DNA of 64,000 bases from Caldisericota bacterium (lineage in GTDB: Bacteria; Caldisericota; JANLFM01): the NCBI GenBank assembly GCA_024655965.1, contig JANLFL010000002.1, positions 115,129 through 179,128 of the forward strand. Direction: 5' to 3'. Positions 1 to 63,060 of the stretch are shown in pieces. The position numbers were made by a program, and so were the translations under genes. Every line of letters begins with the position of its first letter. Within the stretch, counting starts at the first letter, position 1. Under the pieces are notes generated by a model, which was not told the DNA's origin, did not search any database, and worked only from the letters and a program-made list of their open reading frames with translations.

Positions 1-1995
1 GGCCACTCTTCCGGGAAGATCGGGGGTGGAGGGGTCGTTCTCCGCCGTCCTGGTCATGATGACCTGGATCCCCGCGCCTTCGAGAAGGGTCCTCAAGCGG
101 AGGGCGATGTCCAGGTTAATGGTGCTCTCCTTGGTTCCCGATGGTCCGATTGCCCCACCATCGTAGAAGCCCTCGGGAGTTGTCCTTCCGTGACCGGGAT
201 CGATCACAACCCTCCTTCCCGAAGGGTTGGGGGTGAGGCTCCCCGGCCTTTGGGCGCTGATTTTCAAGCCAAACCCTTCTTGGGGGACATCGATGGCATA
301 AGCCTGAGCCCGCCCCAAATGCAGGGTCACGGTCAGGGGACCGGCGCCCGTGGTGGTGGAGCGGGTAACATCCACCAGCATTCCCGTGGAACTTACGGTA
401 CGGGGCAGGAAGTAAGCCCGGGGGATGGTCAGATATAGCAGGTTGCTTTCGTCGTCGTACTTTTGCTGGAAGATAAGTGGGGCTGTGCTTTGAAGCCTGA
501 CCTCCGATTGAACAGTGCCATCCGGTCCCGGGGTCTCGAGGGATTCGATCTTTAAAATCTGGGGATCCAGATTTATTACCTCCCTCTGGGAATTCCAGCT
601 GGGATAAAGCCCCAGGACATCCAGAGAGGATTCCATGGGGATGTAGACCTCGCCTTTGGATATTACCGCGGGTTGGGCCAAGCGAATCTGGGAAACTCCT
701 TCCTTCTCCTCCAGAAGGGCGCGGCTGTCCCCGTTTGAGAAATAAAAGGTCCTGTTCCCAATCTCCAGGGAGGCGGAGCTGGAATTGGGATCAACCTTCA
801 CCGAAGCGAAAAGATAACTGGAAATGGGGGAAAGGGGGATGTAAATCAGGGGACCGTTTTTCAGGTAATTTACCTCCTGGGGAAGCTCGGTTCCCTCCAC
901 CACCAGGTGGGGTGCCTGGGCCTTTACCTTGATGGTCAACTGTCCGGGAACGCTGTCCATCCGGGAGAACTCCAGGGGTCTCTTCAGATCAATGAACAGC
1001 CGGACCCGATTCCCATCAAGCGCCCGGATCCGCGCCCGGAGGACGTCTCCCTTCTTGATGGAATAAAGCGCCCCCTGAGCGGGGAATTGGGCATAGGGAA
1101 GGTCAAGGACTATCCGGTCAGGGTTCCCCAAAAGGGTGGGGGTGCCAGTGAGGTAGCCCTTTCCCCTCAAGGTAATTAACAGGTCTCCATCCTGCATCTT
1201 CCAATCAAGGCTTTCCACGGTGGCAACGGGCCATTCGGAAACGAACTCCGCCTGGATGCTGTTGACCCATCCCTTCTCTCCGTCGAGCAGCTCCAGAAGG
1301 TACCAGGTATCCTTCCGCCAATCCTGGGATACCCCGATTACCTTTCCCCCTGAATCAGGAGGGAGGTTGGCGCGGGGCTCGTGTTCTAATCCTGGTCCCT
1401 TGCGGAAAGGGGCAAGCTGGGTTATGCGGAGGAGTCTTCCGACGGCTTCAGTGGAGGTGAAAGTGAGTTCCGGGGAGACCTCCAGAAGTTCCTGGAAAAC
1501 CCACCCCGAATCCCCGGCTGGCGTTTCCACCTGAAACCAGAGCTCGTCCTCCAGAGTCCAGGATGACCCCACAACCTTTACCGGCGTCCCCTCCTCAAGG
1601 GTGCCGATCACGTCGAAGGCCGCGGATGGCCCGGAGCGCAGGTTGGAGAAGCTGTTTATGATTGCCGTGTTCCCTGAAGGGACATTTGAGGGTACCTCTT
1701 CAAGGGTCACCAGCCAGGAGGCGATCCATCCCTCCAGATCGAGGGAAGGAACGTAAACGTAGTACCAGGTCCTCCCCTCGATATCCAGGTCCTGGTCGTA
1801 GACGATCAATTCCGTCCCGTATTCTAAGGTGTAAAGGAGTTCGTATTCAGTACCTGGTCCGGAACGGAGGTTGGCAATTTCACCCGTGACATAGGCTTTC
1901 TGCTCCCCCTGGGCAAAGGAATAGGGGGGAAGCAAAAGAGCAACGAGGATTATAAGCCAAAAATATTTTAAAGCCTTTCTTTTCAGAAGGCGCAC
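1..1995 (-). CDS. Secreted N-acetylmuramoyl-L-alanine amidase (Amidase_3) with three N-terminal SH3b domains; runs off the left edge of the window
   Basis: Translated by hand (absent from the ORF track). GTG at 1995, signal peptide VRLLKRKALKYFWLIILVALLLPPYSFA, SH3b repeats (ANLRSGPGTEY...GWIASWLV; NLRSGPSAAF...GWVF; FRKGPG...GWVN). Amidase motif VVIDPGHG...E...NLDIA...VIMTR near the window start, in the same frame. Confidence 0.85.
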   Translation of the reverse strand, partial: MRLLKRKALKYFWLIILVALLLPPYSFAQGEQKAYVTGEIANLRSGPGTEYELLYTLEYGTELIVYDQDLDIEGRTWYYVYVPSLDLEGWIASWLVTLEEVPSNVPSGNTAIINSFSNLRSGPSAAFDVIGTLEEGTPVKVVGSSWTLEDELWFQVETPAGDSGWVFQELLEVSPELTFTSTEAVGRLLRITQLAPFRKGPGLEHEPRANLPPDSGGKVIGVSQDWRKDTWYLLELLDGEKGWVNSIQAEFVSEWPVATVESLDWKMQDGDLLITLRGKGYLTGTPTLLGNPDRIVLDLPYAQFPAQGALYSIKKGDVLRARIRALDGNRVRLFIDLKRPLEFSRMDSVPGQLTIKVKAQAPHLVVEGTELPQEVNYLKNGPLIYIPLSPISSYLFASVKVDPNSSSASLEIGNRTFYFSNGDSRALLEEKEGVSQIRLAQPAVISKGEVYIPMESSLDVLGLYPSWNSQREVINLDPQILKIESLETPGPDGTVQSEVRLQSTAPLIFQQKYDDESNLLYLTIPRAYFLPRTVSSTGMLVDVTRSTTTGAGPLTVTLHLGRAQAYAIDVPQEGFGLKISAQRPGSLTPNPSGRRVVIDPGHGRTTPEGFYDGGAIGPSGTKESTINLDIALRLRTLLEGAGIQVIMTRTAENDPSTPDLPGRVA

Positions 1996-49890: not shown

Positions 49891-50463
49891 TTAAAACGAC
49901 AGCACTGGGAAAAATATGGAAAGAAGGGTGAGAACCCCGAAGACCAGGAATAACCCCCCCGCCACATAACTGAGGGTACGGACGGGGATCAACTTTCCCA
50001 AACGGTTCCCCAGAAAAACTGCCACCCCGTCAACGAGGATCATCGCCAGGGAAGCCCCCAGCCAAACGAGGATGGGACTCTTGTATTCCGCGGACAAGGC
50101 CATGGCAAGAAGTTGAGTCTTGTCCCCAAGTTCACTCAAAAAGAAGGTGACAAAAGTTGCCCAGAACGGGGAAAGCCTGTTTTTCACCGACTCCTCCTTC
50201 TTTCCCTTCTCCAGGAGGGAATAGACTCCGAAAAACAGGAAAAGACCCCCAGCGATAATTTTGAGGACGAAATCCGGGAGGAGGGAAAGAATATAATTCC
50301 CGAAAAGGACGGCGATCCCCATTAAGATGAAGACTGCGAAAATGATCCCCCCCAGGACTGCTTTCCAACTGTACCTGGCAGCCAAGGCAACCGCTAAAAA
50401 CTGAGTTTTATCCCCCAGTTCCGCAACCGCAATTAGCCCGAAAGTAAGGAAAAGGACGGTCAA
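49891..50463 (-). CDS. TMEM165/GDT1 (UPF0016) Mn2+/Ca2+ transporter
   Basis: Two ELGDKTQ motifs in a duplicated 3-TM unit. Confidence 0.92.
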   Translation of the reverse strand: MTVLFLTFGLIAVAELGDKTQFLAVALAARYSWKAVLGGIIFAVFILMGIAVLFGNYILSLLPDFVLKIIAGGLFLFFGVYSLLEKGKKEESVKNRLSPFWATFVTFFLSELGDKTQLLAMALSAEYKSPILVWLGASLAMILVDGVAVFLGNRLGKLIPVRTLSYVAGGLFLVFGVLTLLSIFFPVLSF

Positions 50464-51440
50464 AGTTTGAGAAGGGATGCTTTCCCAGCCTGGTAAATCA
50501 AATAGGAAGCTTGGGACCTTGTTGCAGGAAGGGAAGGGTCAAAGAGGAAATTCCCGGAATCGTCTTTCCGCACGATCTGGGGAACATCCAGGGGCAATAA
50601 ACCACCACCTAAAGCGGTCTCCACAAAGGAATAAAACCAGTCCCCGGGAGAACAATCAAAAAAGGTTTGCCGGGGAGGAGAGACGAGGGGCCATGCCAGG
50701 AAGCGAACCAGGATAGTAATGGCCTCTGCTTTGGAAACCTCTTTTTCCGGTTGGAATGTCCCATCCGGGTAACCCTTGATCAAGCCCGCTTTAACTGCGC
50801 CTTCAATGAACTGGTACGCCCAATGATCAGGGGGGACATCGGAAAAGGTGGAAAATTCTGGTTTAGAGGGAGGCAGCCTAAAAGCGAGGAGGGCGATTTT
50901 GGCGAATTCCGCTCGGGAAACGGGATTTTCCGGTTTAAAGTATCCATCGGGGTACCCGGAGAGAATTCCAACTTCGTTTAAGGAGTTGATTTCCTGGAAA
51001 GCCCAGTACTCAAAGGGAACATCAGGGAAAATGGCCTCCACTTTCCTGATGGAAAAATCCAAATCGGAGATATCCCAGACGCTGGGACCAAGGGGAGGCG
51101 ACCAAATCACCCGAATTCTGGAATGGTCGCTCGAAACAGGAGGAACAAGCCAGACGAATGCCCCCAGCCCTCCTGGCTCCTTCGCGGGGTTGGGGAAATA
51201 TACGATGTCCGTCCAGGTCTTCCCGGAATCGAGCGAGAACTGGAGGTTAATGTTTCCTCCTGTCCCCGAGGTGGTCCACTGGATTTCAAAAACCTTTCCC
51301 GCATAAAGGATTTCTCCCCGGTTGGGTTGAATAAGGGTAACAACGTTGGGCTCCTGGGAAGGAATTACGATGGGAGTGGAAAGGAAAAAGGCCCCAATTA
51401 GCAGGGAGGCAAAAAAATTCCTCAAGTTCTGCATTCTCAT
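50460..51440 (-). CDS. Ig-like plus SLH surface protein
   Basis: Signal peptide, PN.GE....G....I.W...SLDSG.TW, SLH triplet. Confidence 0.82.
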   Translation of the reverse strand: MRMQNLRNFFASLLIGAFFLSTPIVIPSQEPNVVTLIQPNRGEILYAGKVFEIQWTTSGTGGNINLQFSLDSGKTWTDIVYFPNPAKEPGGLGAFVWLVPPVSSDHSRIRVIWSPPLGPSVWDISDLDFSIRKVEAIFPDVPFEYWAFQEINSLNEVGILSGYPDGYFKPENPVSRAEFAKIALLAFRLPPSKPEFSTFSDVPPDHWAYQFIEGAVKAGLIKGYPDGTFQPEKEVSKAEAITILVRFLAWPLVSPPRQTFFDCSPGDWFYSFVETALGGGLLPLDVPQIVRKDDSGNFLFDPSLPATRSQASYLIYQAGKASLLKL

Positions 51441-55024: not shown

Positions 55025-55063
55025 TCAAAAAGGAAAGGAGGTTTTTCCTCCTTTCCTTTTTGA
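55025..55063. terminator. Bidirectional intrinsic terminator closing the DUF1659-YvrJ operon
   Basis: Perfect 17-bp inverted repeat TCAAAAAGGAAAGGAGG-TTTTT-CCTCCTTTCCTTTTTGA. Confidence 0.8.
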
Positions 55064-55125
55064 ATCTGATCTCCTGTTTCCTTAATCTTGACCTACGTCT
55101 CTCAACTTCTCTTTTTTTCCTCGCT

Positions 55126-55287
55126 TCATTCATCCTGAATATTAGTTCCCAGGCTCTCCACAACCCTGGTCAACTCCATGATTACCTCTGAGAGTTTCTC
55201 CAGTTTCCCCTCAACCCGAAAGAGGAGATAGGCAGAGACAACGATGGGAAAACCAAAATTGGCGACTAAACGCAAAAAATCCTCCAA
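55126..55287 (-). CDS. YvrJ-family small membrane protein (holin-like topology)
   Basis: Translated by hand (below the ORF-track cutoff): MEDFLRLVANFGFPIVVSAYLLFRVEGKLEKLSEVIMELTRVVESLGTNIQDE; NFGFPI...YLL.R.E.K signature; AGGAGGTGA RBS. Confidence 0.85.
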   Translation of the reverse strand: MEDFLRLVANFGFPIVVSAYLLFRVEGKLEKLSEVIMELTRVVESLGTNIQDE

Positions 55288-55301
55288 GCGATTTCACCTC
55301 C

Positions 55302-56036
55302 TCATACGGGAAATACCAGATCCAGGAGCCTTTTTAATAAGAGCGCGGCTTCTCCCCTTAAGAGGGGTTTCTCAGGGTGGAAGCTGCCATCGGGAAAGCC
55401 CTTGATCACACCCCTTCCCGATAAGGCATTTAACACCTCCTTGAGTTCCGGGGAGGAAACATCCCAGAAGCGGAAGGAGCTTGCCAGGAAGCCCTTCAAC
55501 CCCTGAACAATTCCCGAAGAAACTCCTTCCAAGAAACGGGAATTCTGAAGCAGCCGGGCTTCCTGGGGATCGGAGATGAAGAGGACCTCGATCAAACAGG
55601 CAGGGCCAGGAAATTCCCGCAAAATTCCAATTTCACCCTTCCAGGTGTGGTCAAATGCCGGCGCCCACTGGTCATCAGATTTTGCCCCTCTAATTTTAAG
55701 GGGGAGTTGGGAAAGGGAATTCAAAATGGAAAGGCTAAGCTCTTTTCCCAATTCGTTCCCGGAACGGTACCAAATCTCGCAGCCCTGGGCGCCTGGAGGT
55801 CCGGAGTTTAAATGAAGGCTCAATAAAACTTCGCATCCTTTCTCGTGGGCTTCACGTCCCCTCATGGATGAAAGAAGGTCTCGGTCGGGGTAGAAGACCT
55901 GAAAGTCCCCACCCAGCTTCTCTTTGACCAGTTCCCTCAAGACGGAAGTTACTGCCTCCTCGGAGAGGCCAAGTTCATAATTGATGGCCCCTGGATCCCC
56001 CTCCCTTCCGTGTCCCGCATCGAGAGCAATTTTCAT
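55302..56036 (-). CDS. N-acetylmuramoyl-L-alanine amidase with one C-terminal SLH domain and no signal peptide (endolysin-like)
   Basis: MKIALDAGHG, E, SLHLN, G.E, LIEV.FIS; C-terminal G.IKGFPDGSFHPE..L.RGEAA. Confidence 0.9.
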   Translation of the reverse strand: MKIALDAGHGREGDPGAINYELGLSEEAVTSVLRELVKEKLGGDFQVFYPDRDLLSSMRGREAHEKGCEVLLSLHLNSGPPGAQGCEIWYRSGNELGKELSLSILNSLSQLPLKIRGAKSDDQWAPAFDHTWKGEIGILREFPGPACLIEVLFISDPQEARLLQNSRFLEGVSSGIVQGLKGFLASSFRFWDVSSPELKEVLNALSGRGVIKGFPDGSFHPEKPLLRGEAALLLKRLLDLVFPV

Positions 56037-56054
56037 TTTCGCCTCCTTTCATTT

Positions 56055-56080
56055 AGGTGGCGGGGTTTCCCCCGCCACCT
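56055..56080 (-). other. Strong intergenic RNA hairpin without a U-tract
   Basis: AGGTGGCGGGG-GAAA-CCCCGCCACCT, an 11-bp stem with a GNRA loop on the minus strand. Confidence 0.7.
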
Positions 56081-56090
56081 GTTTAACTGG

Positions 56091-56321
56091 CTATGGCACT
56101 AAGTCCTGGACATTCCTGTTCACGATCTGGGCATCCACCACACCAACCAACCTCCCTCCCGGAGCCTGGAAGACGTCCCGGGAGATGATGCTGTTCATCA
56201 CTTGGGTAACCTCCTCCTGAGTGAGGTCGTCCCTGGGGTTATTGATGGTAATGATAAAATTTCGGGAAGGGTCCTCGGTGGAAAAAATCATCCTCAAGGT
56301 TTGTCTGAAAGAATCAGCCAA
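56091..56321 (-). CDS. DUF2922-family protein
   Basis: TL.M.F......F.I.I.NP..DLT..EV..VM..II...VF...GG.LV....A.IV.R.V; AAAGGAGGTGA RBS with TTG start. Confidence 0.82.
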   Translation of the reverse strand: MADSFRQTLRMIFSTEDPSRNFIITINNPRDDLTQEEVTQVMNSIISRDVFQAPGGRLVGVVDAQIVNRNVQDLVP

Positions 56322-56352
56322 GTTAATCACCTCCTTTCAAAATAAATTCTGA

Positions 56353-56580
56353 TTAAACGGAGAGGAGCTCGGAGCGGTCCACTTTCTCCACGGAATAAAG
56401 CGTCAGCTCCATCAATCCGGCAAGGTCCTGAGCGGTGGCATAGAGGTCTTCAAGGGAAGCTTGAGGCCGAATGTTGTTGAAGCTCACCGCCCGGAGGATC
56501 GTTCTCCCGGATTCGGGGTCAGTCCCGGCGTTCAACCTTAGGGTAAGCCGGGAAGGATAGGGATTGGCATTTACGGGCAT
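56353..56580 (-). CDS. DUF1659-family protein
   Basis: S.L.L....G.D..G..I....SF.NI...A....LY..A..LA.L......V...D...L; AAAGGAGGTGA RBS. Confidence 0.82.
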   Translation of the reverse strand: MPVNANPYPSRLTLRLNAGTDPESGRTILRAVSFNNIRPQASLEDLYATAQDLAGLMELTLYSVEKVDRSELLSV

Positions 56581-56652
56581 TTTTTCACCTCCTTTCTAAA
56601 ATTGCGGCGGAGAAACAAAAACAGCGGCTCAGAAGTTTCTCCGCCGCTGTCT

Positions 56653-56794
56653 AAAATGCAATTGCAATTGCATTTTTAGCATATAAAGGAGGGGATGTCA
56701 AGGGGGTTTGGGAAAAATTTTTTGATCCCTTTGTATTATTAGTATATATATTTTTGGAATAAACCATTGACTTTTTGGAAATATGGGGTAAAAT
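56653..56794. promoter_or_regulatory. Divergent promoter region with a palindromic operator
   Basis: Leftward TTGACA(56701-56696)-N17-TAAAAA with an extended TG; rightward TTGACT(56767)-N16-TAAAAT(56789); perfect 24-bp palindrome at 56653-56676. Confidence 0.7.
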
Positions 56795-56813
56795 AGTTCG
56801 GGAGGAGCTATAA

Positions 56814-57227
56814 ATGGCACAAGCCAGGGACAGGATCAGGGAAATCAGGTTGAGCAAAGGCCTTTCCCAGGGCCAACTTGCTCAGATTCTGGGCTACACC
56901 CCGTCCACGGTTTCCAGAATAGAACAGGGCGTCCTCAAGCCGTCTTTAAAATTCCTTCAGAAGTTCTCCCAGGCCTTCGGGGTTTCCCTCTCCTACCTGA
57001 TAGACCCTCAGGAACCCATCCTCCTGGACGAGGAGGGGGAGATTGACCTCAACCGCCTGGAGCCGGGTTTGAGAGATTTGGCCCTTGATGAGAATTTAAA
57101 ACGCCTCTTCGATGTGAAGGAGGAAGAAATCAAGCGTCTGGCAACCGTCAAGTTCAGGGCGGGTTCGGTGGATAAACAGGGGTATTTGAGCCTCCTTTTG
57201 TTCTTACGAACTCTGGACCGAAGGTAG
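56814..57227 (+). CDS. XRE-family repressor, DdrO/CapH-like
   Basis: HTH_3 domain (R..KGLSQ.QLA..LG.....VSRIE.G...PS); C-terminal helical domain L..V.FR....DKQ......L.LR resembles DdrO. Confidence 0.85.
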   Translation: MAQARDRIREIRLSKGLSQGQLAQILGYTPSTVSRIEQGVLKPSLKFLQKFSQAFGVSLSYLIDPQEPILLDEEGEIDLNRLEPGLRDLALDENLKRLFDVKEEEIKRLATVKFRAGSVDKQGYLSLLLFLRTLDRR

Positions 57228-57893
57228 ATGGCGGAGTTAAAAGAGATTATCCATGAGACCCTCTCCCGGGCAGGAATTCAGCATCCCCCGGTGGAGATGG
57301 AAAAAATTCTGAAAGTTCTCGACCTGGAGGACCTGTTTTTCGATTCCGGGATTGACCAGGAGAATGGAACAGTGCTCTTCCTTGACCAATTGAAGGGAAA
57401 ATGGCGCATCAAGATCCCCTCGTCGCTTCCCCGGGGAAGGCTGATTTTCGATCTGGCCCACGAGTGCGTGGAATACCTGGCCTTAAAAGCGGACATCAAG
57501 TGCTCACACAGGGAGATAAACGAGGGGGCTGTCGAAATGCTCATTCCCGAAAAATGGGGGAAGGAATTCATCGAGAAGGAGGGCCTCGACCTCTTTGCTT
57601 TTAAAAGAGCCTTCTCCACCCCATCTCTGGATACCTGCGCATACAGGCTTTTAGATCTGGCCCCCTTTCCCGGGGTCCTCGTTGTGCTTCGGGATGGGGA
57701 AAGGCGGGTACATCGAAGGCGACAAAGGGCATGGTTCTCCCCGGATGAGGAGGAATTCATTCAGGAGGCATCCACTTCCCCAAACCCTATAATAAGAAAT
57801 CTCAAAGGGGAGGTCTTCCAATCCTTCCCCATCTGGGACCAGAGGAAATTCAGGGTAAAGAAATCCTACATTTATTTTTGGGAGGGTAATTAG
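57228..57893 (+). CDS. ImmA/IrrE (M78)-like metallopeptidase with a variant metal site
   Basis: R..F.LAHECVE, N.GA.E.LIP, F...S...AYRL; starts immediately after the XRE stop. Confidence 0.75.
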   Translation: MAELKEIIHETLSRAGIQHPPVEMEKILKVLDLEDLFFDSGIDQENGTVLFLDQLKGKWRIKIPSSLPRGRLIFDLAHECVEYLALKADIKCSHREINEGAVEMLIPEKWGKEFIEKEGLDLFAFKRAFSTPSLDTCAYRLLDLAPFPGVLVVLRDGERRVHRRRQRAWFSPDEEEFIQEASTSPNPIIRNLKGEVFQSFPIWDQRKFRVKKSYIYFWEGN

Positions 57894-57902
57894 GAGGGGA
57901 GA

Positions 57903-58130
57903 GTGGAATATCTCTCGCCTCAACAACTGGCTATCCGCTGGAATGCCCCTTTGAGGGCAGTTTACGGAATCGCCCTGGGAAAGCACAGTTTTGCCTCCCT
58001 TACGGGAACCTTAAACATTTACCATCACAAAAACAGGCCATTCTTTTCCCTGGAGGAGATTATGAAATGGGAGAGAAAGCTTGCCCGCTTGAAAATCCCC
58101 CTGGAATTGATCCTCAAGGAGTTTAAATAA
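57903..58130 (+). CDS. Small HTH protein, excisionase/MerR-like
   Basis: YLSPQQLA.RW.....VY ... PFFSLEEI.KWE; AGGAGG RBS with GTG start. Confidence 0.55.
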   Translation: MEYLSPQQLAIRWNAPLRAVYGIALGKHSFASLTGTLNIYHHKNRPFFSLEEIMKWERKLARLKIPLELILKEFK

Positions 58131-58202
58131 AAAACAGGGGCTGCCTGGCGGCAACCCCTGCCATGGGGGAGGTGGGAAGACAGGCTATTGGCAATAACCT
58201 TG
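58124..58202 (-). ncRNA. Candidate small RNA of about 80 nt carrying an anti-Shine-Dalgarno motif
   Basis: Minus-strand TTGACA-N18-TATAAA, 5' hairpin, unpaired CCCACCTCCCC, and an 11-bp terminator stem followed by TTTTTTATTT. Confidence 0.45.
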
Positions 58203-58281
58203 ATTCCTTTATAGAGGGTAAATATGAGAGTTGTCAAGGGGAAAGTAAAATTTTTTGTAAAATTTTTTAAGGTTTTACATT

Positions 58282-59025
58282 ATGGAAAATAGGGCTTTAA
58301 AGCTCACCCCTTCACTGATCGATGTCTTCGAGTCCTGCCCCCGGAGGTACTGGTATCTTTACGAGCCGGACTCCCCTCAGGTACCCAGGAGGATATCCTG
58401 GCAGCTTTCCTTCGGTACATCCCTCCACGAAGCAATGAAGGAGATATACTTCTTGGGAGGCCCTCCCCAGGTCCCCCTCTCCTCCCTCTCCCAGATCCTG
58501 GAAAAGTGCTGGCACAGGGAGGGTTTTACAGATGAGTCCCTGGAAAGGGAAAGGAAATTAAGGGCCCTGGAGATTCTGGAAAACTACATCGAAGGAAATA
58601 GATCCCGCCCCGTGATGACCTTGGGGCTGGAAAAGCAGCTCTCAGCATCAATTGAGGGAGTGAACTTTCTTGCAAAAATCGACAGACTGGATCTGCTTCG
58701 ACCGGGTTTATTGATCGTGGATTATAAAACTGGACAGGGGGCCTTGAGCGACAACCAGTTGCTCATCTCCTTTCTGGTGGTCCTTTTTAATTATAAATCA
58801 CCCTCTGATCGCCCGGTGAAGTTCATGCTCCTAAATCTGGAGAGGGGGGAGGAAAAAATCATCGATCTGGAGGAGGAGAAGGCTTTCGCCCGGATTAGTC
58901 ACTACAAAAACATCAGGGATCAGATCATTCAGCGAGAGTTCCCGCCAAACCCCTCGGTTTTCACCTGTCGGTACTGCGAGGCGGGGAACATCTGCAGTTT
59001 TGCCCGAAAATGGGAAAGGGAGTGA
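58282..59025 (+). CDS. PD-(D/E)XK RecB/AddB/Cas4-like nuclease with an Fe-S staple
   Basis: CPRRY, G..LH, E..L, IDRLD, VDYKTG, QL, C-terminal CRYC.....C. Confidence 0.85.
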   Translation: MENRALKLTPSLIDVFESCPRRYWYLYEPDSPQVPRRISWQLSFGTSLHEAMKEIYFLGGPPQVPLSSLSQILEKCWHREGFTDESLERERKLRALEILENYIEGNRSRPVMTLGLEKQLSASIEGVNFLAKIDRLDLLRPGLLIVDYKTGQGALSDNQLLISFLVVLFNYKSPSDRPVKFMLLNLERGEEKIIDLEEEKAFARISHYKNIRDQIIQREFPPNPSVFTCRYCEAGNICSFARKWERE

Positions 59026-61473: not shown

Positions 61474-63060
61474 GTGGTTGATAAAATTTTTTATCTCATT
61501 CTCATCCTCACGATCCTCAACCCCATTCCCCAGGCGCCTGCTTCCAATTTCCGGGACCTTCCTTCCGACTACTGGGCTTTCGAGGTGATCGAGAACCTAT
61601 CCCAACTGGGGATCGTAAAAGGTTACCCGGAGGGCACTTTCCGCCCTGAAGCAAGGCTTACCAGGGCGGAGTTCGCCAAGATCTATGCCCTCTCCTTCCA
61701 CCTTTCCCTCCCGGAGAGTCCCCGCTCCTCTTTTGTTGACCTCCCGCCAGACCACTGGGCGATTCCTTTTATTGAGGCCTGCGTTCAGGAGGGGGTCATC
61801 AAAGGTTATCCGGAAGGGTATTTTCTCCCGGAAAACCAGGTAACCCTTGAGGAAGTCCTGGCTGTCCTTCTTAGGCACCTCTACCCCCGATACGAGGTGA
61901 TCCCCGACGTGGAGGCCTTCCCCACCCTGGATACGGACCGCTGGTCTTATCCCTATATTCAAATGGCTCTCGCTCTGGGAATCCTCCCCCGGGATGACCC
62001 CGATTTCCTTGAATGGGGAGAATTCATCCCCGACTCCCCATGTTCAAGGGCCCAGGCCTGTTTTCTGGTTTTCAGGACAAGGTTTTTTGGGAATTCCCTC
62101 AGTCTGGGAAACCCGGTGGAATATCGGTTGACTTACACCGTTCATCTCTTTAACGAAGGGACCAGTCCATCAGGAGGGGTTGATTTGACCTTGGCGACTG
62201 TCCCGGATGTCCTCCCCTTTCAGCATGTCCAAGAAATGAATTTCTTTCCCCAACCAAATGAATTTGAAACGGACGACAATGGCAATCGATTTGCCATTTT
62301 TCACCTTGAGGGAATCCTCCCAGGCAAGGAGAAAGAGGTAAAAATGGAGGTCCTGGTGGAGGTCTTCCCCTTTTCCTACTATCCCGATTCAGAGACTGGC
62401 TCGCTTAAATACCACACCAGCGGGACCGATTTCATTCGATTTACATCCCCGGAATCCTTCGAGGAATCGGATAGTCCCGAAGTCCAGAAAAAAGCCAGAG
62501 AGCTGGACCAGGGGGAGGGGTTTTTCGAGACTTCTTTGGCAATTTACAACTTCGTGGGGAAACACCTCACCTATTCGGGGTACAACCCCCAGAGTTCGGG
62601 AGCCCTTGAGGCGCTTCTATCAGGGGAAGGGGACTGCACGGAATTCGCTGACCTCTTCGTTGCTTTAGAGAGGGCCAGCGGAATCCCCTCCCGTTTTGTG
62701 GAGGGGTTCGTTTATTCCGATTGGTCGGGAAAAAGAGAAGATATAACGCATGACTGGGCAGAGGTCAGGCTTCCAGGGGGGATCTGGCTTCAGGTTGATC
62801 CGACATTCGGCCGATTCGGCGAAAATTTTTTCTTCGCCTCCGAGGGAAAGCACATCCTCCTCACAAGAGGGAGGAACCTGGAACAGTTAGGGGGGTTCCA
62901 TTACTATTTTTACCATTACGACACCGGGGGAGGGCTCGCCAGCATAGACTCCTATGAAGAAATTGAAATAATTCCCCAGGAGGTAGGCGATTTGACAGGG
63001 GGGTGGGGGGAAATTAAGCTATACGGGAACGAAGTAAACTTCAAGAAGGTGGTAAATTGA
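61474..63060 (+). CDS. SLH triplet plus transglutaminase-like (cysteine protease-fold) surface protein
   Basis: Signal peptide, three SLH repeats, catalytic triad GDCTEF / HDWAE / DPT. Confidence 0.87.
   Translation: MVDKIFYLILILTILNPIPQAPASNFRDLPSDYWAFEVIENLSQLGIVKGYPEGTFRPEARLTRAEFAKIYALSFHLSLPESPRSSFVDLPPDHWAIPFIEACVQEGVIKGYPEGYFLPENQVTLEEVLAVLLRHLYPRYEVIPDVEAFPTLDTDRWSYPYIQMALALGILPRDDPDFLEWGEFIPDSPCSRAQACFLVFRTRFFGNSLSLGNPVEYRLTYTVHLFNEGTSPSGGVDLTLATVPDVLPFQHVQEMNFFPQPNEFETDDNGNRFAIFHLEGILPGKEKEVKMEVLVEVFPFSYYPDSETGSLKYHTSGTDFIRFTSPESFEESDSPEVQKKARELDQGEGFFETSLAIYNFVGKHLTYSGYNPQSSGALEALLSGEGDCTEFADLFVALERASGIPSRFVEGFVYSDWSGKREDITHDWAEVRLPGGIWLQVDPTFGRFGENFFFASEGKHILLTRGRNLEQLGGFHYYFYHYDTGGGLASIDSYEEIEIIPQEVGDLTGGWGEIKLYGNEVNFKKVVN

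Follow-up and report, generated by a model that had tools for sequence, protein, structure and literature searches.

A DUF1659-DUF2922-amidase-YvrJ cassette beside a DdrO/IrrE-like regulator operon in Caldisericota: a candidate damage-controlled holin/amidase system

Results

Organisation of the locus

The DNA analysed here, called the window, is a stretch of 64,000 nucleotides (64 kb) from a Caldisericota bacterium (assembly GCA_024655965.1, contig JANLFL010000002.1, positions 115,129 to 179,128). The source genome, labelled G000 and derived from an uncultured sludge bacterium, comprises 1.73 Mb in 47 contigs, and the window lies on its contig C22. Between positions 55025 and 59025, two operons are placed back-to-back. 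The leftward operon is a cassette of four genes, encoding a DUF1659 protein, a DUF2922 protein, an N-acetylmuramoyl-L-alanine amidase and a 53-residue YvrJ protein. The rightward operon encodes a DdrO-like repressor of the XRE family, a 221-residue protein resembling IrrE (PprI) and CapP, a 75-residue protein and a nuclease. All eight open reading frames (ORFs) of a preliminary description of this DNA are present at the same coordinates in the ORF list. The two operons are separable units that have been joined in this lineage. We give a probability of roughly one half to the interpretation that a damage switch of the DdrO/IrrE type controls the holin/amidase cassette, with autolysis or local opening of the cell wall as the outcome. 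Relatives from the family to which the window belongs are referred to by label: G001 is a sister genome, G004 is from a different genus, and G003 and G008 are further members of the family.

The amidase and YvrJ

The amidase gene (55302–56036, complementary strand) codes for an Amidase_3 domain (residues 3–181, expectation value E 4.3e-21) and an SLH domain (residues 197–231, E 1e-8); the protein also matches the endolysin families 435 and 2742 of the PHROG database. With a catalytic domain that starts as early as residue 3 and an amino-terminus that is hydrophilic according to its hydropathy, the enzyme has no space for a signal peptide, which bears out the earlier description of this enzyme as an SLH-containing amidase without one. 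Three SLH-domain proteins are encoded within 13 kb (window positions 50460–51440, 55302–56036 and 61474–63060). The amidase of the cassette contains one SLH repeat and its neighbours contain two or more, so the amidase may need to oligomerise in order to bind the wall polymer. A second Amidase_3 domain is encoded at window positions 1–210 (G000:C22:114799-115338), in an 854-residue open frame straddling the start of the window, and the idea that the cassette contains the only amidase of the genome was therefore rejected.

The YvrJ gene (55126–55287, complementary strand) starts with a TTG codon 14 nucleotides past the amidase stop codon and is preceded by a GGAGG ribosome-binding site. Its product belongs to Pfam family PF12841 (E 4.8e-17) and matches phrog_4898, annotated as holin, with an E of 4.7e-6. 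It contains one hydrophobic segment (residues 7–23, Kyte-Doolittle hydropathy 1.94), which is predicted to be its single transmembrane segment.

The DUF1659 and DUF2922 proteins

The DUF1659 gene (56353–56580, complementary strand; Pfam E 4.8e-20) and the DUF2922 gene (56091–56330, complementary strand; Pfam E 5.9e-22, phrog_21372 E 3.4e-11) encode members of the SroA and SroB families, respectively, and have the tandem arrangement by which SroA/SroB loci are recognised. Alignments with orthologues suggest that the true start of the DUF2922 gene is probably the TTG codon at 56321. When the two proteins are compared with hhalign, they are related with a probability of 73% and an E of 3e-5, and on this basis they are probably distant paralogues.

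The AlphaFold2 model of the DUF2922 protein (predicted local distance difference test, pLDDT, 88) has a beta-beta-alpha-beta hairpin fold. Fold searches with this model retrieved nothing significant from the PDB (best E 0.44) or from the viral models of BFVD (best E 9.7e-3, with a template-modelling score below 0.5). Prediction of a complex of the DUF1659 and DUF2922 proteins reached a score of 0.76, compared to 0.01 for the best of three controls. When this score was calibrated, 58 of 80 solved complexes attained as much, compared with 2 of 110 mismatched pairs. Contact agreement between runs was at least 98%, with a partner pLDDT of at least 79, and the predicted interface comprises residues 36–58 of chain 1 and 25–57 of chain 2. 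The models thus suggest that the two proteins probably form a heterodimer. Structure prediction, proposed in the preliminary description as a way to learn more about these proteins, has in this way yielded a predicted complex and a DUF2922 fold without a structural match.

That description had regarded DUF1659, DUF2922 and YvrJ as families of no assigned function, and this view needs revision. In Staphylococcus aureus, the DUF1659 and DUF2922 proteins go by the names SroA and SroB; the sigma factor SigS, of the extracytoplasmic function (ECF) type, induces both about 1000-fold, and their own effects on the level of the sigS transcript are opposite (10.1101/2022.10.19.512975; this and the other studies cited are used as far as their accessible text reaches). 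Overexpression of SroA is reported to cause wide transcript changes (PMC13192611). In Bacillus subtilis, the split sigma factor SigO-RsoA has yvrJ among its targets (PMC8103513), and YvrJ-like proteins are annotated as holin in Bacillus phages. Because of these transcript effects and of the control by SigO-RsoA, we favour a tuning role for the DUF pair over a structural one; by analogy, the pair most likely tunes the timing or expression of the system. No sigma factor gene is present at the window locus, where ECF-type dependence as in SroA/SroB might have been expected. A defence function had also been proposed for the cassette. This finds no support, as none of the four cassette proteins matches a PADLOC model.

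Promoters, leader and terminator

The preliminary description had given the leftward operon its own promoter and terminator, and both are present. A promoter of the sigma-70 type, TTGACA-18-AAAAAT, is located at 56672–56701 on the complementary strand; it agrees with the consensus at 10 of 12 positions and is conserved in G001 and G004. Downstream of the YvrJ gene, an intrinsic terminator with an 18-bp stem occupies 55025–55063 (complementary strand). Its folding free energy is −29.1 kcal/mol (z −4.68), and none of 200 shuffled sequences folds equally well. It is bordered by an A-tract and a U-tract, so it may act in both directions.

Between the promoter and the DUF1659 gene is a structured 5′ leader (56604–56651, complementary strand; free energy −33.3 kcal/mol, z −4.0). 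It contains an 8-bp terminator-like hairpin followed by UUUUUGUUUC, hairpin and U-run together spanning 56611–56651. A more stable, 13-bp alternative hairpin, formed by 56604–56616 with 56637–56649, overlaps the terminator-like one. Terminator-like hairpins with U-runs are also found between promoter and DUF1659 gene in other cassettes of the family (L034, L035, L037 and L038). This arrangement suggests control by attenuation or antitermination. A scan of the 54–60 kb region against Rfam gave nothing above chance, its sole matches being the terminator hairpin scored as microRNA, far below the gathering thresholds.

A rightward promoter-like site, TTGACT-16-TAAAAT, lies upstream of the XRE gene at 56767–56794 (forward strand), again with 10 of 12 consensus positions and with a conserved -35 element. 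Further downstream, in the interval between the genes of the 75-residue protein and the nuclease, there is a GC-rich hairpin (58133–58162) whose stability is not significant (−20.7 kcal/mol, z −1.6) and whose terminator-like T-run is confined to the minus strand.

The XRE repressor and the IrrE-like protein

The XRE repressor (56814–57227, forward strand) consists of an amino-terminal HTH_3 domain (E 1.9e-17) and a carboxy-terminal domain. Its residues 5–132 align with the DdrO structures 6jq1 and 6rmq, with E values of 6e-6 and 8e-6. DdrO is cleaved between L106 and R107 (PMC6868357); in the alignment, this scissile bond coincides with F114-R115 of the XRE protein, two residues that are invariant in nine orthologues. 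PADLOC assigns the repressor to its capH model (5.9e-10) and the 221-residue protein to its capP model (3.1e-7).

The gene of the 221-residue protein (57228–57893, forward strand) has the same orientation as the XRE gene and adjoins it directly, start codon following stop codon without a gap (57227/57228). The protein has no match in Pfam, NCBIfam or PHROGs, and its profile matches no sequence in the PDB; its identification as an M78-type peptidase with a GAF-like domain comes from fold and profile. The AlphaFold2 model (pLDDT 90.6) was compared with known structures using Foldseek and matches, over its full length, Deinococcus PprI/IrrE (8sln_A, E 6e-9, TMq 0.66; also 8slm, 3dti and 3dte), a transcriptional regulator of Mycobacterium tuberculosis (6cyy and related entries) and CapP (7t5t, E 4e-6). 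The full-length matches range from 6e-9 to 4e-6 in E and from 0.58 to 0.66 in TMq. As the whole length is matched, the protein contains both the peptidase domain and the carboxy-terminal GAF-like domain (8sln, 3dti, 7t5t). A profile built from seven close homologues retrieved 123 proteins at E ≤0.001 among 1.84 billion. The window protein and 49 of these matches were aligned, and Peptidase_M78 (PF06114) is recognised in 45 of the 50 aligned sequences.

The active site is unusual. The HExxH motif with a downstream glutamate, by which COG2856 proteins are recognised, is replaced by H78-E79-x-x-E82 and H94. HECVE is invariant in the seven close homologues. Among the 50 aligned relatives, position 82 is glutamate in 45 and histidine in three; position 94 is histidine in the subgroup of the window protein and glutamate in 33 of 50. 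The active-site residues are 82, 83, 86 and 113 in IrrE (PMC6868357) and H96, E97, H100 and E129 in CapP (10.1101/2022.04.27.489752). From the aligned residues we infer a swap of ligands, HExxE...H, that would keep two histidines and one glutamate. A sizeable clade of Peptidase_M78 proteins (P0012-P0066) contains AHE[ILV]GE, which is also an HExxE motif, and most of its members have glutamate at the position of the third ligand. As regards the IrrE/DdrO-type switch of the preliminary description, the full-length alignment with DdrO and the whole IrrE/CapP fold uphold it, while the canonical HExxH is absent. The possibility that the IrrE-like and 75-residue proteins form a split sigma factor of the SigO/RsoA type was considered and rejected, since the former has the fold of IrrE.

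The 75-residue protein and the nuclease

The 75-residue protein (57903–58130, forward strand) is conserved, with orthologues in five of the nine genomes of the family. It gave no match in Pfam, NCBIfam, PHROGs, PADLOC or PDB sequences, and specifically none to AlpA in the Pfam and PDB sequence searches. A feature score of 0.93 in the ESM Atlas, to clusters of small HTH and Cox proteins, is a lead that makes it possibly a small DNA-binding protein resembling Xis, Cox or HTH_17. It had been called an Xis-like HTH protein; the ORF is there, and the label has the backing of this language-model lead and of no family match.

The last gene (58282–59025, forward strand) encodes a PD-(D/E)XK nuclease of the Cas4/AddB/RecB type (PDDEXK_1, E 6.9e-25), which also matches the cas4 and addB models and is called Cas4 by PADLOC. 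These matches agree with its earlier description as a RecB-like nuclease. The translation contains cysteines C19, C229, C232 and C238, an arrangement that we take to be that of iron-sulphur-cluster nucleases.

A candidate operator shared with a DNA ligase gene

A putative operator for the XRE repressor, TGCAATTGCAATTGCA, is located at 56657–56672. It is a TGCAA-N6-TTGCA palindrome that begins at the last base of the leftward -10 hexamer and spans the expected transcription start; its assignment follows from its position in the promoter and from conservation of its half-sites. These are intact in G001 and read CGCAA/TTGCA in G004. The palindrome is about 95 bp from the XRE promoter and is thus better placed for repressing the cassette than the XRE gene.

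In the 1.73-Mb genome there are three exact copies of TGCAA-N6-TTGCA and 54 sites that deviate by one mismatch at most. A promoter of the form TTGACA-N17/18-(T)AAAAT directly precedes just two of the 54, one at the cassette and one at an ATP-dependent DNA ligase gene; a wider regulon, sought genome-wide among the 54 near-matches, did not extend beyond these two promoters. The ligase palindrome (C22:46581) is about 125 kb from the cassette and outside the window. The ligase gene (G000:C22:46530-48320; L112:2530-4321) encodes the domains DNA_ligase_A_N, _M and _C (E down to 1e-49) and has a structured leader. Its upstream layout is CCCCCTTGACA-N18-TAAAAT-GCAATTGAAGTTGCA, and CCCCCTTGACA precedes the cassette palindrome as well. 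The ligase orthologues in G001 and G004 retain promoter and half-sites with different spacers, and the site in G003 is TGCAC-N6-GTGCA. That a repair gene has the same palindrome fits a regulon for DNA damage.

Chromosomal setting

The genes flanking the locus are housekeeping genes: GDT1, an SLH protein, EamA, CYTH, a PAS/GAF histidine kinase, PxpABC and an SLH-transglutaminase. The base composition is flat, with a guanine-cytosine (GC) content of 0.50 at the locus, like that of the flanks, and the locus is syntenic in G001. No tyrosine integrase is found within about 170 kb on the contig, no transfer RNA (tRNA) gene in the window between 40 and 64 kb, and no phage structural, replication or integrase gene near the locus. 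Judged from these flanks and searches and from the viral scans described below, the locus does not lie in a phage or prophage late region, where holin-endolysin pairs are expected. The earlier conclusion that this is not a decaying prophage agrees with the housekeeping flanks, the missing integrase and the occurrence of YvrJ throughout the phylum.

Distribution of the two units in Caldisericota

The IrrE-like protein was found in nine of 93 Caldisericota genomes, which are all nine of the window's family, with one copy in each. Its gene follows the XRE gene in all nine, and the nuclease gene comes next, clearly so in seven genomes and weakly in one more. The regulator operon is back-to-back with the cassette only in G000, G001 and G004. 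The locus is therefore not one self-contained unit of eight genes, which corrects the module of the preliminary description: the regulator operon is present in nine of nine family genomes, it lies beside the cassette in three, and other regulators are found next to cassettes elsewhere.

The cassette is distributed more widely. DUF1659 is present in 28 of 41 related genomes, and YvrJ in 54 of the 93; two families have none (0 of 11 genomes, 0 of 2). Of 68 YvrJ places, 57 loci in 48 genomes were analysed, the other 11, mostly on very short contigs or with partial matches, being omitted. Using two amidase profiles built for this analysis, an amidase gene was detected within 250 bp on the same strand at 43 of the 57 loci, and within 2.5 kb at 48. 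A scan of genome contigs with a six-sequence alignment subset found Caldisericota loci only. Seven YvrJ matches were noted in genome G002.

The layout is specific to the family. In that of the window, an Amidase_3+SLH gene lies between DUF2922 and YvrJ; in the Caldisericaceae, an Amidase_2+SLH gene comes after YvrJ; in a third family, an Amidase_2 gene is found ahead of DUF1659; and in a fourth, a YvrJ-Amidase_2 pair is located apart from the DUF genes. The hydrolase is thus not orthologous between families, both its own family and its position being variable. In all these layouts the amidase domain begins at residues 2–5, so none of the enzymes has a signal peptide.

The survey of gene neighbourhoods, which covered Caldisericota and five plasmid records, found the XRE/IrrE-like pair beside the cassette in the three genomes named above, and other regulators, or none of a damage type, elsewhere. 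In genus g19 of another family (four genomes; L049, L084, L085, L086), a gene for a HTH_3+Peptidase_S24 protein is divergent from Amidase_2-DUF1659-DUF2922-YvrJ. No full-length HTH-S24 protein other than this LexA/CI-like one was found in the four genomes; the remaining S24 matches are an UmuD-sized ORF in three of them and two weak partial matches. The coupling to an S24 protein is independent of the coupling to the IrrE-like protein, and each may be a single evolutionary event. In genus g22, a 142-residue protein consisting of sigma-70 region 4 only is encoded directly upstream of DUF1659 (L078:3896-4324, L083:1307-1735). The same genus has a 74-residue ORF between DUF2922 and YvrJ. This arrangement recalls the control of B. 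subtilis yvrJ by SigO-RsoA.

Additional copies were observed in G001, where four further DUF1659 genes, three of them with DUF2922, lie on contigs of 6.8–8.7 kb (L033-L036; C42, C39, C35 and C34). ORFs of 113–139 residues without family assignment separate DUF1659 from DUF2922 in these copies, one of which includes a frameshifted amidase gene. Their neighbours are restriction-modification genes of Type ISP or Type I and a gene for a DUF3800 protein.

Plasmid and phage relatives

DUF2922 matched 23 plasmid records, of which five were inspected. Three of the five contain the cassette with a hydrolase: plasmids of Parageobacillus (L068) and Geobacillus (L070) encode DUF1659-DUF2922-YvrJ-M15 peptidase, and a Peribacillus plasmid (L071) encodes DUF1659-DUF2922-YvrJ-amidase. 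Of the other two, the Paraclostridium plasmid lacks a hydrolase and encodes just the three small proteins, and the Clostridium plasmid contains only two DUF pairs. On the Geobacillus plasmid, a ComK-like gene (PF06338, E 3.9e-7) is located ahead of DUF1659. In L068, L070 and L071, the cassette is followed by the gene of a small site-specific integrase of about 190 residues.

A search with a YvrJ protein of Geobacillus retrieved 33 Bacillus phage records (E 2e-3 to 0.2), and many of these bear the annotation holin. In phage QCM11, a YvrJ-like gene of 49 codons, gp31, lies directly before the endolysin gene, in the slot of a holin. Translated searches (tblastn) of phage records with the DUF2922 proteins of the window and of Paraclostridium gave no match, and a scan of viral contigs with the DUF2922 alignment found no relatives. 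Holin-like export is proposed mainly because an enzyme that has to reach the wall, and that lacks a leader, is nearly always encoded beside the same tiny membrane protein. From this neighbourhood pattern, YvrJ is most likely a holin-like exporter of the amidase. The endolysin/holin logic proposed earlier for the two proteins has thus gained support from the PHROG holin match, the position of the YvrJ-like phage gene and the 43 of 57 loci at which the genes are adjacent.

Discussion

A proposed mechanism

In the mechanism that we propose, a dimer of the XRE repressor bound to TGCAA-N6-TTGCA would keep the cassette promoter off. DNA damage, for which single-stranded DNA is the probable signal, as it is for PprI and CapP (the latter is activated by single-stranded DNA; 10.1101/2022.04.27.489752), would cause the IrrE-like protein to cut the repressor at F114/R115. 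Loss of the repressor would permit transcription of the cassette and of the ATP-dependent DNA ligase, whose promoter and operator have the same layout, and the terminator-like hairpin of the leader might form a second checkpoint. YvrJ would then pass the amidase across the membrane in the manner of a holin, the SLH domain acting only outside the membrane, while the DUF1659:DUF2922 heterodimer would tune timing or expression. Amidase release would result in autolysis of badly damaged cells or in local opening of the wall. The palindrome shared with the ligase and the LexA-like repressor beside the cassette in another family fit such a link to DNA damage.

Several observations weigh against control of a lytic cassette by a damage switch. 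On the side of the switch, the IrrE-like protein escapes direct recognition by the Pfam, NCBIfam and PHROG families, and with HECVE in place of HExxH its catalytic activity is presumptive. The genome also contains a LexA-sized S24 protein, so the XRE/IrrE-like pair is not the sole possible damage sensor. Three exact palindromes are close to the number given by chance, about 1.7 by our own estimate of one per 4^10 positions, which leaves promoter position and conservation to argue for the operator. The cassette promoters of G003 and G008 lack such a palindrome, and this, together with the adjacency in three of nine genomes, makes the coupling lineage-specific. On the side of the cassette, gp31 of QCM11 scores just under the 29.5-bit cutoff of the Pfam YvrJ family (28.3 bits, E 1.3e-6), the window YvrJ gives no BLASTP alignment with gp31 and no tblastn match to phage records, and at nine of the 57 YvrJ loci no amidase was detected with the two profiles. 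In B. subtilis, yvrJ is a member of an acid-stress sigma regulon, and it is accordingly not certain that every YvrJ serves a hydrolase. The S. aureus DUF pair appears to act on transcript levels, and the accessible text of those studies reports no link to lysis. Lastly, wide conservation in genomes of 1.2–2 Mb suits suicide no better than it suits a routine function in the wall.

This last point leads to the most serious of the competing explanations, to which we give distinctly less credence than to damage-induced release, though we regard it as a real contender: a non-lytic housekeeping or secretion device, in which the amidase reaches the wall via YvrJ and the damage switch merely modulates. 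It could serve the separation of cells in filaments, envelope turnover, vesicle formation or the release of protein or DNA in the manner of type 10 secretion. Vertical conservation in most Caldisericota families (54 of 93 genomes, which are small), with family-specific layouts, speaks for a device of this kind, as does the SLH domain, which would hold the enzyme on the wall of the cell producing it. Most lineages, moreover, have no adjacent repressor of a damage type, and some have other regulators, such as the sigma region-4-only protein or the ComK-like protein. Routine separation could, however, be carried out by the second, large Amidase_3 protein. The architecture of tight repression with a terminator in the leader suggests a dangerous product, and the cassette has been coupled to damage-cleavable repressors twice. 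A further explanation, which we think improbable, is that the two operons are neighbours by accident, the XRE/IrrE-like/nuclease operon governing a family-wide DNA-repair regulon (ligase and nuclease) and the cassette being controlled by its leader terminator or by the DUF pair. The regulator operon is indeed located elsewhere in six of nine family genomes, where the cassettes keep promoter and leader hairpin and have no palindrome, and the genome-wide palindrome count is near chance. Accidental adjacency does not account well for a palindrome found at the identical position relative to the -10 element in both cassette and ligase promoters, with CCCCCTTGACA upstream of each, conserved in the two other genomes with the adjacency and lying some distance from the XRE promoter.

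Least probable of all is a prophage or mobile-element remnant, a lysogeny switch and lysis cassette that survived a deletion; we consider this very unlikely. XRE, M78-type, Xis-like, nuclease, holin and endolysin genes are all frequent in prophages, the additional DUF1659/DUF2922 copies of G001 sit on short contigs beside restriction-modification genes, and the related cassettes on Bacillaceae plasmids adjoin small recombinase genes. Set against this are the housekeeping surroundings, with no phage structural, replication or integrase gene or tRNA nearby, the unchanged GC content and the synteny with the sister genome. A regulator operon that is single-copy in all nine family genomes and a cassette that is phylum-wide are likewise at odds with a remnant, and the DUF2922 protein had no relatives among the viral contigs and phage records that were scanned.

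A broader reading of the distribution can be offered tentatively, as we believe it less likely to be right than wrong. The cassette, together with an interchangeable leaderless wall hydrolase, may be an ancient, non-viral holin-type system for export or autolysis, present on Caldisericota chromosomes and Bacillota plasmids and wired at least twice to DNA-damage switches, namely to an IrrE-like/DdrO-like pair and to a LexA-like XRE-S24 repressor. If so, it would provide a first function for three DUF families, an IrrE clade with swapped ligand positions (HExxE...H) and a two-layer control, by operator and leader terminator, like that of Pseudomonas Alp. Damage-controlled release of the amidase, the interpretation that we prefer for the window locus itself, would have implications of its own. 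YvrJ, DUF1659 and DUF2922, which are widespread, acquire a concrete and testable role in aiding the exit of leaderless wall hydrolases. The locus would bring an uncultured phylum of deep branching, and a target of a new kind, within the reach of DdrO/IrrE- and CapH/CapP-type switches, and it displays a conserved variant of the active site. Should induction lyse the cells, this would be a damage-triggered death pathway with a logic comparable to that of Alp and built from unrelated parts. The pair of promoters with their conserved candidate operator constitutes a ready-made reporter system.

Comparison with known systems

The regulator operon most resembles the DdrO/IrrE (PprI) system of Deinococcus, with which it shares a DdrO-type carboxy-terminal domain, an aligned scissile position, the full IrrE fold, the adjacency of the two genes and at least one DNA-repair gene, the ligase, with a candidate operator. 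It differs in having HExxE with histidine at the position of the usual third ligand, in its operator sequence (TGCAA-N6-TTGCA) and in having two candidate promoters, one of which drives a wall-hydrolase cassette; the operon also includes the nuclease and the 75-residue protein. CapH/CapP, from cyclic-oligonucleotide-based anti-phage signalling systems (CBASS) and other defence operons, is similar in its PADLOC models, in the 7t5t fold, in the divergent position of the regulator and in a potentially lethal product. The genes controlled here, however, match no known defence system in PADLOC, and the canonical HExxH is missing.

S. aureus SroA/SroB and B. subtilis yvrJ under SigO-RsoA involve the same three Pfam families under stress-responsive control. 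The S. aureus work, in its accessible text, describes transcript effects, without a hydrolase or YvrJ partner. The accessible text of the literature found on DUF1659, DUF2922 and YvrJ contains no account of the cassette or of a link to wall hydrolases, although the operon lists of the CapH/CapP preprint may include such cassettes.

The Alp system of Pseudomonas aeruginosa responds to DNA damage through the antiterminator AlpA, which allows expression of alpBCDE and the amidase AmpDh3 past an intrinsic terminator (PMC7969949, PMC9371919, PMC9998450). As far as these accounts go, Alp (AlpR, AlpA) and the locus described here are alike in logic: Alp has a damage-cleavable repressor, a terminator between promoter and genes, and an induced peptidoglycan amidase, to which correspond here a repressor, the predicted hairpin and U-run at 56611–56651, and an amidase. 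The likeness is one of logic only; the 75-residue protein gives no AlpA match in the Pfam and PDB sequence searches, and the repressor in our locus would need a separate protease rather than cleave itself. Phage holin-endolysin pairs, such as gp31-gp32 of QCM11 (Salasmaviridae), and type 10 secretion systems have in common with the cassette a leaderless, interchangeable hydrolase encoded with a very small membrane protein. In contrast to the phage pairs, the cassette is chromosomal, occurs throughout a phylum in surroundings free of phage genes, includes two additional small cytoplasmic proteins and equips its hydrolase with an SLH anchor.

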